The notes beneath the pieces were generated by a model. The model made no database searches. It was given only the letters and a program-made list of their open reading frames with translations, and had not been told where the DNA came from. From a plasmid, in the sequence record NZ_CP017043.1: a stretch of 64,000 bases of DNA; one strand, written 5' to 3'. Each line of letters opens with the position of its first letter. The first letter of the stretch is position 1. Made by a program: the position numbers and the translations under genes. Of this stretch, positions 6,245-57,564 are shown piece by piece.

Positions 6245-6263
6245 AAAATCCTATGATTTCACA
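6245..6263 (-). promoter_or_regulatory. Conserved upstream motif instance (giant MTase/helicase gene)
   Basis: aaaaTCCTATGATTTCACA is a member of the (A/T)4-TTCYTRTC-WTTTKTCA family. Confidence 0.45.
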
Positions 6264-6583
6264 GTGAGAAACATTTCTCAAGGTCATTATAGCATTCTGC
6301 TTTCGTAAGTGCAACTATATTTAGTTACACAAATAAATAAAAAGAAAGGAACAGTAATTTCTCAGGGTTATCATTTTCTTTTCGCTCCGCGTTGCTTCAT
6401 TCGCTGCACGCTCATTCCCGCGCTGCTCCGCTCTCAAGAAAAACATAACCTTCTGCTCATTCACTGTTCCCAAGATTTATGGCTTTCGCAGAATGCGTCA
6501 TCCGTCACACGTTCCGGACAGCGCATACTGCTACCGCCTCCCCGCCCGCCTCCTCATGGGGCGTTGCCCCCTGCACCCCCGAT

Positions 6584-8341
6584 TCAAGCAGAGGTATCAC
6601 TCGTTTTATTTGTTGTCCGTTGCCGCACAATGCTCTGCTCTTGTGCTGCCCTCTTCTCCCGTTCTTCCTTTTCGGCCTTCTGAACGACGTAGGAGCCATA
6701 AGGGGTATTCGGATGATCCCGATCCCAATTCTGTGGCTTATACCGGGAGAGCATTGGCGATAGGTTTCTTGATTCTACGCCGTCATTCAGGAGCGCCTTT
6801 ACAATCTTAGTGTCCATCGTGATGTTATACGGGAGCCGGATGCGCCCTTCCATCTTACGTCGTTGGTATTGGTACTCTGCTTCGAAGTCTTCTCGCATCT
6901 CGGTACGAGGTATCACAACATAGCGGCTCAGTTTTTCATTTTCTCTTACAAGCTCCTGGTCTGCAAGCTTCTGGATATATGCGAAATAATCCGCGCCGCC
7001 GAATATTTGATTGGGCGAATGATTCATCATTGCCTCCCTGATCTGATCCGGCGTATACTGGCCGCCCAGCACAAGCTCTTTCATGGCCGCAATGTCCATG
7101 TCCGGATTCACAAAGTCTTTCTCTATGTACTGACGGTGCATTGCATCCATATATGCAGCTGCGCAGGAACCTAGATCATTCACATCAAACATCGCGATTG
7201 CATCTTCTCTTGAAAGTGCCTCCTGCGCCTGTGCCAAGATCAACGCTGCGTATTCGGTGGAATCCGGAAGTGCAGCAGCAATCGCCAGAGCGATCAGATA
7301 CCGTTTCACAATATCTGTACGAACACGGCTCCGCAGCATTCTGGCCGCCGTGCGGCCGTCTGGAGAACGAGACTGTCCTTTGATATTGGTATACGCATCA
7401 TCGTCTCGCTGATGCAGCCCAAGGCTCTCACACGCACAGAGGAAAGTTTCGTCAAGGTAGGTCTCTCTGCTGCGCCCGGGTTCGATATAAAGGGGAGACG
7501 CCTGAGCAATGGACTTTCGGAGAATCGGCTGCACCTGCTCCTTGAGTAAAAACATCATACGCGCTGGATCTTTCTGATAAGCAGTCCGCTCGTCCTGAAG
7601 ACGGCGCATATAGTCCCGATAGATCGCCTCGATGATCTTCTGCTCATCGTCAATGGTGAGCACAGTTGTATTTGTCCTCTCCATATACTCCCTGGCGAAT
7701 TTTCGGTAAACATCTGCTTCGCTGCTCATGACACCGCCGGCATACGCCATGATTGCAGCATAGCGATTGTGTCCATCGGACAGCGCAGAAAAAAGCGTCT
7801 GAAAATAGGATTCATCGGCCTTCCGCTCGTTGGCAGACTGCCGAATTACCTGATTCACAACAGCGATCGGAAAGCCGTCTTTCAAGATCATGGCCATGCC
7901 AATACGATAATCCCGCTGAAGTCCCGCAGCTTCTGATTCTGCCGCTGCGCGCCGCCGATAACTTTCCGCCGCTTCGAGATATGTACGCGATGCACGCTCC
8001 GCCCACGCTTCATTGATGTTCTCCATGACTTTTCCGGTATAAAGCGCCATTGCGCGTACATCCGGAAGCAGTTTGGTCATGGGCGATTTTTCGCAGATCA
8101 CAGATCTCACGGCATCGACATCATATCCGCTTTCCAAAAGCCGGATTGCGGCCGTCAGATCGTTCTCGTAGTTCTCTGCCTGTTGATTGGGAAATTCGGC
8201 AGTATTCTCCTTTTTGCGCTCAACCATTGTTTGTCCGAGCACATCAAGATATGCAACTGTAATATTTTTCATTCGTTGCTCTCTCTCGTATTTCTGTGGC
8301 AGCTTGTAGCATAACGGCATGTGCGCGCCGTGTAGTTTCAT
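6584..8341 (-). CDS. Conserved hypothetical protein of conjugative elements (585 aa; start possibly at an internal Met, MKNITVAYLDV, ~8272)
   Basis: Long ORF with protein-like composition, located between the giant MTase/helicase gene and T4SS block 1. No recognisable catalytic motif. Confidence 0.5.
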   Translation of the reverse strand: MKLHGAHMPLCYKLPQKYEREQRMKNITVAYLDVLGQTMVERKKENTAEFPNQQAENYENDLTAAIRLLESGYDVDAVRSVICEKSPMTKLLPDVRAMALYTGKVMENINEAWAERASRTYLEAAESYRRRAAAESEAAGLQRDYRIGMAMILKDGFPIAVVNQVIRQSANERKADESYFQTLFSALSDGHNRYAAIMAYAGGVMSSEADVYRKFAREYMERTNTTVLTIDDEQKIIEAIYRDYMRRLQDERTAYQKDPARMMFLLKEQVQPILRKSIAQASPLYIEPGRSRETYLDETFLCACESLGLHQRDDDAYTNIKGQSRSPDGRTAARMLRSRVRTDIVKRYLIALAIAAALPDSTEYAALILAQAQEALSREDAIAMFDVNDLGSCAAAYMDAMHRQYIEKDFVNPDMDIAAMKELVLGGQYTPDQIREAMMNHSPNQIFGGADYFAYIQKLADQELVRENEKLSRYVVIPRTEMREDFEAEYQYQRRKMEGRIRLPYNITMDTKIVKALLNDGVESRNLSPMLSRYKPQNWDRDHPNTPYGSYVVQKAEKEEREKRAAQEQSIVRQRTTNKTSDTSA

Positions 8342-55537: not shown

Positions 55538-57490
55538 TCATGTACCCGGCAAGAACTTGAAGCCATTGCTTGTGCAAAATTGCTTGATAATCAGCTGCGA
55601 CAGCTTATCTCCCATGTATACGAACAGGATGCAGATCATGGCCAGTTTCAGCAGTATAACGATCTGCAGGGTGTGCTGCGTCTTCTGGATGGAATCCGAG
55701 GCTGTAACGACTTTTTTCCAATATCCCCCGCTGCGGTCGCCGTTCCATGCTCCGGCAGCCTTTTCCCAGCTCCCGTTTGCATCAAACAGTTCGAGCAGAT
55801 GATGCTTCGCAACGGCTGTCTGTACGTTCTCAGGCCAAGGAGTAGTCGCTGGAGGGAATTTGTCTTCCCATGATCCGCTGTACGGTTTGGACTGATAACC
55901 GGGACTTGCCCACGCCTCTGAATCGTCGCCCCAGGGCATAGGCGGCGGCTCGAAGCCGGCGCGCTGACACCATACATCCCAGTATTCATAACTGATCTGA
56001 TATGCGCCGTATCCCCATCCATCCTGCGAGGGTGTCTGAAACGGATGCTCCTGCCCGCCGGTCTCTACGCGGCGAATTGCCTCGACAACCATATCAATGC
56101 CATCTCGGCCGCCGAAGTTGCCGTTGGGATTGCCGACAGCCTCCTGAATCGGAACCGTCTTTACGCGGATCAGATCATCTACCACCATTGTTGTCATAAC
56201 GGACTGCAGCATGGCCGCAAAGAAACAGAAGAAAAAGAGCTTTATGGATGCGCTGAAAATCCCGTTCATTCCATTTTCTGCATAGCGCCGCGACCATTTA
56301 ACACCGGCAAACATAAAGTTGGCAAAACTGAACACGGCAATGAGGTAGAACTCGAGATATGCCATGATAATCTCAAGGGCAAAGAGGACGAACGATCCAA
56401 AAATGATGATGAGGAAAATGACTGCAACAGCACCGGAGGCAATCTTGGCCAGCCAGTCCAGTCCTCCTGCATCGGTTTCATTCAGCACGGTGAATATCGG
56501 CTCGATGATCTGCGCGCCCTTTGTAACAAGTGACGTTGGATCAACAAGCATCTGTTTTGTCTGCGCTATATCCAGACCGCTGGTTGACGCTCCGAAGCTG
56601 ACAAACAGATCTCTCGTTCCGTTGATAATGAAGCCGCCCCAAGCCGTAATGACGTAGAAAAGCATCACATACACCAATATCTTCAGCGTCAGCAGCTTGA
56701 AAATGCTGAAATTCGGATCTTGCCCCTTTTCGCGGTCTACCGCAATCAAAAGATACGTCATGGCAAGGTCTATTGTCATCAGGATTGCGATTGTGTATTT
56801 GATGATTCCTTTGAGAAGATCAACTGCTTTCGTACAGGCCAAAGCGACTGTATCAATCGCTTTTTTAACCGGATCCATAAAGGCAAAGGCCGCATCCCAG
56901 ACCATGCCCTTACTCTTTCGGCTCATATCAAGTCCTTCTACCGTCGCATTTGCAGGGAGCCACGGAGCATAGGGGTGATAAAGCGCAGGACTAATAGGAG
57001 AATCGTTGATGCGCACCTCAAAATGCAAATGGGATCCGCGTGATACAGCTGTTTCTTCCGGTCCAGAATAACCAATCAACTGCCCACGTCGTACGTGATT
57101 TTCTACACTCTGCATAATTGCACGGGCTGGAAGAAAGCCGTCATTCGGATCTAAATCACCATACCATGTTTCAAACTTACTTCCATCTGGCGCGGTATGT
57201 TCGATAACCACAAATCCATCAAAAGAAGAGTCATTTTTTGCAAGAATGACCGTTCCGTCCGCAACAGCATAAATGGGTTCATGTACTTCAGTACCGATGT
57301 CTATACCGTTATGCGGCTGTACTCTACCAGTAATAGGGTGCGTACGGCGCGGGTTGAAAGGACTTGACACGATGATTTCATGTCCGTGCAGCGGCGCATC
57401 CATCATCACAAGACTAGAAGCGCATACCAGCGACGCATATCCTTGTAAAAACAACACAATCAATAACAGGAAAAAGTATTTTGATCTCAT
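55538..57490 (-). CDS. M23 peptidase fused to VirB6-like polytopic membrane domain and C-terminal globular domain (650 aa from MRSKYFF)
   Basis: Signal peptide. Motifs HNGIDIGTEVHEPI and GSHLHFEV (M23). Six or more TM helices follow, then a Trp/Tyr-rich C-terminal domain (GWGYGAYQISYEYWDVWC). Confidence 0.6.
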   Translation of the reverse strand: MRSKYFFLLLIVLFLQGYASLVCASSLVMMDAPLHGHEIIVSSPFNPRRTHPITGRVQPHNGIDIGTEVHEPIYAVADGTVILAKNDSSFDGFVVIEHTAPDGSKFETWYGDLDPNDGFLPARAIMQSVENHVRRGQLIGYSGPEETAVSRGSHLHFEVRINDSPISPALYHPYAPWLPANATVEGLDMSRKSKGMVWDAAFAFMDPVKKAIDTVALACTKAVDLLKGIIKYTIAILMTIDLAMTYLLIAVDREKGQDPNFSIFKLLTLKILVYVMLFYVITAWGGFIINGTRDLFVSFGASTSGLDIAQTKQMLVDPTSLVTKGAQIIEPIFTVLNETDAGGLDWLAKIASGAVAVIFLIIIFGSFVLFALEIIMAYLEFYLIAVFSFANFMFAGVKWSRRYAENGMNGIFSASIKLFFFCFFAAMLQSVMTTMVVDDLIRVKTVPIQEAVGNPNGNFGGRDGIDMVVEAIRRVETGGQEHPFQTPSQDGWGYGAYQISYEYWDVWCQRAGFEPPPMPWGDDSEAWASPGYQSKPYSGSWEDKFPPATTPWPENVQTAVAKHHLLELFDANGSWEKAAGAWNGDRSGGYWKKVVTASDSIQKTQHTLQIVILLKLAMICILFVYMGDKLSQLIIKQFCTSNGFKFLPGT

Positions 57491-57543
57491 GCCCGCAATC
57501 CTCTCGTAATTATATGCTCCTATCCTACCGCGAAATATCTGCT

Positions 57544-57564
57544 TAAAATTCCTATCATTTGTCA
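57544..57564 (-). promoter_or_regulatory. Conserved upstream motif instance (M23/VirB6-like gene) plus palindrome GCAACTAAATATAGTTGC at 57575-57592
   Basis: aaaaTTCCTATCATTTGTCA. On the minus strand TATAAT lies ~36 nt downstream. The palindrome also occurs at 6311-6328 (GCAACTATATTTAGTTAC). Confidence 0.45.

Follow-up and report, generated by a model that had tools for sequence, protein, structure and literature searches.

The 64,000-nucleotide stretch of the plasmid sequence record NZ_CP017043.1 that we analysed (the window; 48.5 % G+C) carries the transfer genes of a conjugative element, and a recurrent promoter built around a 19-nucleotide box stands at the head of their operons. Nearly all of the VirB/VirD4 conjugation genes lie on the minus strand and the system that they encode is of the diderm type. 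Pfam and NCBIfam searches identified a type IV secretion system (T4SS) set with VirB2, B3, B4, two VirB6 proteins, B8, B9, B10, B11 and VirD4. The set also includes a second coupling-protein-like gene product, an S26/TraF-like peptidase, two M23 peptidases and an SLT transglycosylase, and the DNA-processing genes encode TopB, SSB, a MobA/MobL relaxase and a giant N6-methyltransferase/SNF2 protein (N6_Mtase and SNF2 domains) whose open reading frame (ORF) runs from 6185 off the left end of the window and exceeds 2060 amino acids. Maintenance and integration are represented by ParM, a resolvase, a tyrosine integrase and an ICEBs1-Xis-like protein. VirB2-B4, B6, B8-B11 and D4 are found by Pfam and NCBIfam together with a relaxase, an integrase and an excisionase, the combination that characterises an integrative element of the VirB/MPF-T (mating-pair formation) type.

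Because the two ends of the window (1 and 64000) are just 1.8 kb apart on a 66,008-bp metagenome contig (L019, at 6276-8096; relatives are designated here by L numbers), the window reads as a circularly permuted, nearly complete copy of a circular element of about 66 kb. The 1.8-kb stretch outside the window holds the C-terminus of the giant gene, a 65-amino-acid ORF and the start of a Fic gene; another metagenome contig that carries the element (L099, 66,846 bp) is similar in size. Its VirB9 has relatives in Selenomonas infelix ATCC 43532 (85 % identity, within a 657-kb contig), in metagenome-assembled genomes of other Selenomonas and Selenomonadaceae and in Anaerovibrio, and two of the relatives abut chromosomal aromatic-amino-acid (aro) genes in Selenomonas. 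Because of these VirB9 relatives and the integration beside aro genes, the element is classed as an integrative and conjugative element (ICE) of the Negativicutes. A megablast search of the plasmid collection PLSDB with window positions 12000-25000 returned zero matches.

A box promoter at the head of eleven operons

The information profile defines the conserved element as an asymmetric box of 19 nucleotides, which on the minus strand reads TGAnAAAWGAYAGGAAWWW. It occurs at eleven sites (Table 1), every one of them intergenic and on the minus strand, where it heads an operon and precedes the ribosome-binding site and start codon by 15-65 nt. Nine of these sites had been listed in a single orientation by a first-pass annotation of the same DNA and all nine were recovered; the other two (box promoters 9 and 11) are new, the former box lying 21 nt before TATACT and the latter, with the core CATCGGAA, 21 nt before TAGGAT. 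The genes assigned to the nine sites were correct, with the refinement that a 366-amino-acid gene of unknown function precedes virB4 in the operon at 12507. The TTCYTRTC core proposed for the motif holds at seven of the nine, where it reads GAYARGAA on the minus strand (plus coordinates 12511, 17235, 22218, 24852, 40894, 52112 and 57549), and fails at 6245 and 13298, which have the variant core CATAGGA. Measured from the end of the GAYARGAA core, a TAnnnT hexamer follows after 19-21 nt at every site, so that the constancy claimed earlier for at least four sites extends to all of them. The distance from motif to start codon measures 38-86 nt, slightly wider than the 35-70 nt first reported.

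Several counts separate the box from chance. Non-coding DNA makes up 10.6 % of the window, and in an unbiased 8-mer count the top-ranked 8-mer there was GACAGGAA, on the minus strand. The loose 10-mer AWSAYARGAW has 16 matches against 5.9 +/- 2.4 in shuffled sequence (0 of 100 shuffles reach 16). A composite of box, spacing and TAnnn[TA] matches 11 times on the minus strand and 0 times on the plus strand, against an expectation of 0.39 per strand from 300 dinucleotide shuffles; equal frequency on the plus strand, which the first-pass annotation had named among the outcomes that would speak against a regulon, was not what we found. One composite match, at 59185, was discounted: it is antisense within the plus-strand HipA-like/134-amino-acid genes and scores 1 bit with the position weight matrix (PWM). 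Site 62183, which has a C in its core, escaped the composite pattern. A scan with the PWM, a kind of check that had been suggested at the outset, sets the eleven minus-strand sites (26-46 bits) apart from all else, the next minus-strand match scoring 15 bits, the best plus-strand match 9 bits and shuffled sequences mostly less than 12 bits; site 62183 reached 33.0 bits though it lay outside the training set. These results support, at the level of sequence, one cis element common to the transfer operons. When metagenomes were scanned with the box alone, 114 of 120 matches were without a -10 module at the right distance (median score -9.75), and five of the six that had one belong to this ICE family. 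The box-alone matches in that scan are mostly chance matches from unrelated environments and give no evidence of satellites borrowing the box.

The promoters share a fixed anatomy. On the minus strand the box is followed by about nine variable bases, a T-rich tract 5-8 nt upstream of the -10, and a TAnnnT -10 hexamer, and the information profile picks out the 19-nt box, the T-tract and T1, A2 and T6 of the hexamer. The hexamer is of the housekeeping type, with T1 and A2 invariant and T6 present in 16 of 18 curated sites, and likewise in L014-L017; its form is TATAMT/TAnnAT, and no separate non-housekeeping -10 of the kind that would mark an alternative sigma factor was seen. None of the 18 curated sites agrees with TTGACA, at a spacing of 16-18 nt, in more than 3/6 positions, a TGn extended -10 is absent at the box promoters except at 24861, and a sigma-70 consensus scanner called none of the eleven. 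The same scanner does call canonical promoters of parM (50879) and at 42231, and a canonical TTGACA-17-TATTAT promoter lies at 35958 in the regulatory region. Because canonical promoters are found for maintenance and regulatory genes and none of the box promoters is called, host polymerase uses ordinary promoters in this element and the transfer operons form a distinct promoter class. The absence of any site better than 3/6 bears out the early suggestion that the motif lies too far from the -10 for a sigma-70 -35 and would suit either an alternative sigma factor or an activator. With a start point some 7 nt downstream of the -10, the box would span approximately -48 to -30 (centre about -39), with a spacing constant to +/-1 nt.

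Table 1. Box promoters of the element and features of its regulatory region (aa, amino acids; window coordinates)
Feature	Position (strand)	Box	-10	Score (bits)	Genes and remarks	Found elsewhere
Box promoter 1	6221..6263 (-)	6245-6263, TGTGAAATCATAGGATTTT, variant core CATAGGA	TACTAT, 6221-6226	34.6	giant N6-methyltransferase/SNF2 gene (ATG 6185, off left end)	
Box promoter 2	12485..12526 (-)	12508-12526, TGAAAAAAGACAGGAATCC	TATACT, 12485-12490	37.8	366-aa gene (ATG 12421), VirB4, RepB-primase-like gene	conserved in L001, L009, L014-L017
Box promoter 3	13274..13316 (-)	13298-13316, TGAAAAAACATAGGAAATT, variant core CATAGGA	TAAGAT, 13274-13279	39.3	VirB2 pilin (ATG 13230), VirB3	orthologous promoter in 8 elements
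Box promoter 4	17209..17250 (-)	17232-17250, AGATAAAAGACAAGAAAAA	TATAAT, 17209-17214	34.3	VirD4 (GTG 17193), VirB11	
Box promoter 5	22192..22233 (-)	22215-22233, TGACAAATGACAGGAATTT	TAAAAT, 22192-22197	43.9	219-aa gene, VirB8, VirB9, VirB10, 167-aa gene; orthologous promoters aligned	
Box promoter 6	24827..24867 (-)	24849-24867, GTTCAAAAGACAGGAAAAA	TATACA, 24827-24832, or TACAAT two nt downstream	32.4	S26/TraF-like gene (ATG 24806), four small genes	
Box promoter 7	40868..40909 (-)	40891-40909, TGAAAAATGATAGGAATTT	TATACT, 40868-40873	45.7 (best site)	TopB (ATG 40844)	metagenome contigs L099, L114, L136
Box promoter 8	52086..52127 (-)	52109-52127, GTACAAAAGACAAGAAAAA	TATACT, 52086-52091	26.4 (weakest)	361-aa gene (ATG 52050); without T-tract	
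Box promoter 9 (new)	54587..54629 (-)	54611-54629, TGTTAAATCATAGGATTTC	TATACT, 54587-54592	31.5	~510-523-aa gene (ATG 54566), 257-aa gene	identical in L018 and L019
Box promoter 10	57522..57564 (-)	57546-57564, TGACAAATGATAGGAATTT	TAGGAT, 57522-57527	41.8	M23-peptidase/VirB6 fusion (ATG 57490, 650 aa), 312-aa gene	orthologues in metagenome loci L111, L117
Box promoter 11 (new)	62141..62183 (-)	62165-62183, TGAAAAAACATCGGAATTC	TAGGAT, 62141-62146	33.0	264-aa gene (ATG 62096), VirB6 (564 aa)	
Early operon	34149..35899 (-)				canonical TTGACA-17-TATTAT promoter, 35934-35962	
Cro-like Xre	35669-35899 (-)				early operon	
ICEBs1-Xis-like helix-turn-helix protein	35465-35653 (-)				early operon; NF047858, E 2e-14, below curated cut-off	
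98-aa ORF, then 55-aa ORF	(-)				early operon, between Xis-like gene and 190-aa gene	
190-aa helical protein	34340-34912 (-)				early operon	
64-aa Xre helix-turn-helix protein	34149-34343 (-)				early operon; overlaps 190-aa gene (ATGA)	
CI-like Xre	36054-36413 (+)				faces early-operon promoter	
Integrase	36517-37602 (+)				beside CI-like Xre	
Switch region	35915..36041				four operator-like repeats GCTACA-N4-GTTGACA around face-to-face canonical promoters	

Some of the promoters have additional features in their surroundings. Strong intrinsic terminators stand directly upstream of two of the eleven boxes, at 12572-12544 and at 24896-24874 (which abuts its box), so the terminator-promoter modules described in the first-pass annotation exist at these two places and are not a general feature. 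About 40 nt upstream of box promoter 1 lies an extra extended -10 promoter, TTGCAC-17-TATAAT. In the leader of the 366-amino-acid/VirB4 operon (12422-12484), which is conserved in L001 and L009, AAGGAG and the annotated ATG are separated by about 40 nt that include a CGCCGCG...CGCGGC hairpin. The -10 and 5' leader of the TopB promoter (40845-40890) are contained in a strong inverted repeat, AAGCCCCTTTTCGGGATATACTTATCCTGAAAGGGGGCTT, that ends 6 nt before the ATG, which suggests an additional layer of control on TopB. Within the SLT gene the box-like sequence TGTCAAAAGAGCGGAATTT (63206-63224, 15 bits) is followed 19 nt later by TATATA and is kept in L018 and L019; this may be an internal promoter of low strength, or the resemblance may have arisen by chance. 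An 18-bp palindrome, GYAACTAWATWTAGTTGC, is present in exactly two copies, 6309-6330 and 57573-57594, directly upstream of the box promoters of the giant methyltransferase and of M23/VirB6; this count is marginally above chance (8 of 100 shuffles reach 2 matches) and the palindrome may be the operator of a second regulator. Its second copy stands between the M23/VirB6 promoter and a divergent HicB gene, which belongs to a plus-strand island (57639-59553) within the minus-strand transfer region that encodes HicB, a HipA_C-like protein of 446 amino acids and a 134-amino-acid ORF. A second HipA-like gene is at 47655-48575, and the HicB/HipA-like genes of the two places are probably toxin-antitoxin or addiction modules.

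Conservation of the promoters and divergence of the box

We compared 21-kb loci around VirB9 homologues with 84, 70-74, 66, 58, 57, 55 and 58 % identity. Down to 66 % VirB9 identity the same box recurs at orthologous promoters with its spacing unchanged. At three orthologous promoters, each compared in 6-8 elements, the box averaged 0.64-0.73 pairwise identity, the -10 averaged 0.71-0.94 and the T-tract 0.52-0.60, against 0.24-0.37 in the variable spacer and both flanks, the length of the spacer being constant. In more distant elements the architecture is kept, as is the upstream half of the box (TG-N4-AAAW-GA), and the downstream half is lineage-specific, each element having one downstream half that is uniform over all its promoters: GACTGGAA at 4 sites in L014, GATTGG at 4 sites in L015 (the full box being of the type GATTGGTT), ATAAGAAA at 3 sites in L016 and ATAATAAAA at 4 sites in L017. 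None of these variants has a copy beyond the promoters on either strand of its own ~21-kb locus. A box that is uniform within each element and divergent between elements in related hosts points to a cis site that co-evolves with a cognate protein encoded by the element, and speaks against reading of the box by a sigma factor or global regulator of the host.

The promoters themselves have been gained and lost among relatives. The virD4 box promoter is present in the window, L001, L015 and L017 and absent from L009-L014, where just a terminator and a Shine-Dalgarno sequence lie ahead of virD4. In the window about 530 nt (17251-17777), including the virD4 box promoter, lie between the terminator of the virB10 operon (17772 region) and virD4, and likewise in L001; the region looks like a promoter-carrying insertion/deletion polymorphism. 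Still more distant Selenomonadaceae elements, L004 and L007, have unrelated recurrent intergenic elements in place of the box. In L007, a distant Anaerovibrio relative, the recurring module consists of a terminator, then a perfect palindrome, AGGATGCCCATWATGGGCATCCT, and then a conserved block, GTATAAAWAMMCATAATTTTTYGG, and is found in the gaps 1402-1525, 4742-4802, 5859-6000 and 7288-7907; the recurring element of L004 is GAAAGTGGTTCTAWTAGMACCACTTTCTG.

The regulatory region and the reading of the box

Searches of essentially every ORF in the window and the missing 1.8 kb with Pfam at lenient E-values and with NCBIfam found no sigma-70-family domain (Sigma70_r2/r4), and no AraC, LuxR, FlhC/FlhD or MotA-type protein was found among the element's ORFs with Pfam, or with PHROGs and NCBIfam for those of unknown function. 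The factor that reads the box is probably made from the xis/early operon, and the conserved pair of a 190-amino-acid protein and a 64-amino-acid Xre protein from that operon is a candidate for it; the Xis-like protein of 62 amino acids, Cro76, Xre103 and Xre119 are further candidates. The 190/64-amino-acid pair lies beside the T4SS genes in L011-L015, which are all the relatives with a GAYWGG-type box whose fetched region extends to that position. An opposite-strand Xre gene of 103-112 amino acids adjoins the pair in the window, L013 and L014 and is absent in L011, L012 and L015. The 190-amino-acid protein has 13 homologues, all in this ICE family and all without annotation. In the 64-amino-acid Xre protein the putative recognition helix is RRSIYNWE where the boxes are GAYAGGAA or GACTGGAA and RWSVYNWE in L015, where the box is GATTGG, a change weakly compatible with co-variation of helix and box. 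Two of the operator-like repeats of the switch region continue as GACAGGAAG and GACAAGAAG, which equal the box-core 8-mer, although the distance to the -10 is 13 nt here instead of 20 nt; the box-binding factor may use them for feedback, or the match may be coincidental.

We propose that the box is the upstream half of a dedicated promoter class served by an element-encoded activator of the class-II type acting with host sigma-A and made from the xis/early operon, a reading to which we give a probability of roughly 0.55. Host sigma-A polymerase would read the TAnnnT -10, and a single element-encoded DNA-binding protein on the box would supply the missing upstream contact, as SetCD, AcaCD and FlhDC do. 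Having neither a -35 nor an extended -10, the box promoters should be poor starting places for host sigma-A polymerase alone, and an element without a sigma gene is more likely to act through an activator than through a sigma factor of its own. The activator would come from the xis/early operon under the control of a CI/Cro-like (ImmR-like) switch beside the integrase; if it is made solely when that switch fires, all eleven operons should come on together, so that T4SS, coupling-protein, pilin, TopB and anti-restriction-type operons would be switched on in a cascade leading from repressor to activator to the eleven operons. From the arrangement of the DNA we infer where transcription starts, that host sigma-A is used, that the bound protein activates and does not repress, and which factor is involved and where it comes from.

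Several observations weigh against this proposal. An oriented, asymmetric element at a fixed distance from the -10 also resembles the -35 element of a sigma factor, and uniformity of the box within an element could in principle be due to gene conversion instead of co-evolution. Xre-type helix-turn-helix proteins usually bind palindromes and the box is not palindromic; the element's Xre-family regulators had been suggested as its binding proteins from the start, and an asymmetric site of ~19 bp seems to suit classic palindrome-binding Xre dimers less well than that suggestion implies. The fetched 21 kb of L016 and L017 contain no orthologue of the 190-amino-acid protein despite the box variants of these elements, and the AlphaFold2 model of the protein is all-helical, with a predicted local distance difference test (pLDDT) score of 56 and no recognisable fold.

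Two other readings are ones that we consider unlikely. In the first, an alternative sigma factor, either a divergent one encoded by the element or one of the host, reads box and -10 together, the box being its -35-region element. The asymmetry of the box, its single orientation, its spacing constant to +/-1 nt and its overlap with the -35 position agree with this, and its AGGAWWW part can be likened to the -35 consensus of Firmicute SigH, RnAGGAwWW. The near-complete element, however, has no sigma-70 r2/r4 domain in any ORF; the -10 is the housekeeping TAnnnT and stays constant while the box changes between lineages; a conserved element of 19 bp that reaches about -48 exceeds the length of a region-4 contact; a SigH -10 of the GAAT type is absent; and a host factor would leave unexplained both the element-specific variants and the different motifs of other Selenomonas elements. 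Comparison by eye with consensus sequences led us to drop the Fur-box, SigH, sigma-54 and MerR-spacer readings for misfits of spacing or sequence.

In the second, to which we allow a similarly slender chance, the box is read by a new polymerase-retargeting factor encoded by the element that replaces the region-4/-35 contact, akin to sigma appropriation, and co-evolves with the box; it might be a heteromer of the 190-amino-acid protein and its translationally coupled 64-amino-acid Xre protein, or a sigma-like protein too divergent for Pfam. Were this true, the different lineages of Negativicutes ICEs would have orthogonal pairs of box and factor.

It is somewhat less probable still that the box serves as operator for a repressor of the element, perhaps one of its five Xre-type proteins, that silences the transfer operons until induction. 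The element has several Xre/CI/Cro-like genes, outer dyad arms TGAAA...TTTCA can be seen at 40903, 22227 and 6257, and the KorA/KorB/TrbA regulons of IncP plasmids are a precedent for global control by repressors. Promoters without a -35 or an extended -10 would nevertheless have little intrinsic activity to repress, the dyad is missing at 5 or more of the 11 sites, the information profile is asymmetric, and the operator-like repeats that the element does have at its switch differ in sequence from the box (GCTACA-N4-GTTGACA).

Binding of the box by a conserved host global regulator or nucleoid protein (Fur-, CodY- or HU/IHF-like), by which transfer would be tied to host physiology, is improbable. 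The box is A/T-rich, some lineages have GATAAT-like cores (L017), and by hand comparison the box at 40903 agrees at ~11 of 19 positions with a 19-bp Fur-type consensus. Against it stand the poor match to known consensus sequences, variants that are lineage-specific and uniform within each element, and a strict orientation and -10 spacing that would be unexpected of a palindrome-binding global repressor.

We have very little faith in the idea that the motif belongs to an RNA element such as a terminator, an attenuator or a leader, with the GC-rich segment and T-run after the box as its functional part: several spacers do resemble the 3' half of a stem with a T-run, and the window box at 22227 lies in the loop of a GCTGCTGA...TCAGCAGC hairpin followed by T7, but the hairpins are not conserved in the orthologues L001, L009, L013 and L014, the 22227 stem is lost in the 84-85 % relatives L001 and L009, spacer sequence varies freely (identity 0.24-0.32), the T-tract is in register with the -10 and not with any stem, and a box upstream of the -10 is outside the transcript of that promoter. 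The GC-rich-plus-T-run look of several spacers reflects the conserved T-tract and not a conserved hairpin. A common RNA structure was rejected, folds of 115 nt around each site differing from site to site, and Rfam returned zero family matches on the whole window.

The box regulon among known systems

Almost nothing is known about the control of conjugation in the Negativicutes, diderm Firmicutes often met with in mouth and gut, and we found no paper on the regulation of these elements in the literature that we searched. That a mobile element can govern its transfer genes through one box and one master regulator is an established principle; the element family, the box, its tripartite architecture and the lineage-specific variants are not in that literature. 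Our analysis provides a map of the transfer regulon of a Selenomonas ICE with eleven promoters, a consensus and a fixed architecture, and with this promoter map the master regulator becomes directly findable against a short list of candidates. The natural variants of the box predict matched, and possibly orthogonal, pairs of regulator and promoter, and the promoters are on offer as inducible parts for anaerobes that are genetically difficult.

Systems in which one site recurs at many promoters differ in the form of the site and in the protein that reads it. KorA, KorB and TrbA of IncP-1 are repressors that act through one short palindromic operator at many promoters of a conjugative replicon, promoters that are otherwise functional; those described here are without a -35 and their box is asymmetric. 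In the middle promoters of phage T4 a MotA box of ~9 bp, centred at about -30, accompanies a sigma-70 -10, and MotA/AsiA bring about sigma appropriation. The ICE promoters resemble these in having an asymmetric box in place of the -35 while the host sigma-70 -10 is retained; the MotA box is shorter, however, and Pfam found no MotA or AsiA domain in the proteins of the element. At the tra boxes bound by TraR of Ti plasmids and at class II CRP/FNR promoters, a site near -40 overlaps or replaces the -35, and tra boxes and CRP sites are palindromes for dimers. Here too the predicted activator site would overlap or replace the -35 at several promoters of one element, but the box is asymmetric and the element encodes no LuxR-type or CRP-type protein.

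The regulatory region is reminiscent of ICEBs1, in that an Xre-type repressor gene and the integrase gene lie on one strand and face a canonical promoter for the Xis homologue and transfer genes. The conjugation genes of ICEBs1 form mainly one long operon transcribed from Pxis, whereas those of the Selenomonas element are split into at least eleven units, each with its own box promoter. The T4SS is also of the diderm VirB type, and no ImmA-like protease was seen in the element.

The closest parallel to the box regulon is with SetCD and AcaCD. The AcaCD regulon of IncA/C plasmids is reportedly related to that of SetCD, likewise with one master activator and one box. In SXT/R391 ICEs, SetCD is an element-encoded master activator of many transfer-operon promoters, its own operon is held off by a CI-like repressor, and its 19-bp box lies at the -35 of promoters that have no recognisable -35 (PMC4344509). 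The Selenomonas element shares this design: its box, likewise about 19 bp long, would lie at the -35 position or overlap it, and the many transfer-operon promoters that carry the box show no recognisable -35. It differs in that Pfam found no FlhC/FlhD homologue in the window or the missing 1.8 kb, the predicted regulator being, on present evidence, no homologue of the known master activators; in that its box is unrelated in sequence and is accompanied by a conserved T-tract in the spacer; and in that its host is a diderm Firmicute, Selenomonas, and not a gammaproteobacterium, binding and activation being predicted here from sequence. If this prediction holds, the logic of SetCD and AcaCD would extend to an unrelated phylum, where it would be joined to a switch like that of ICEBs1.

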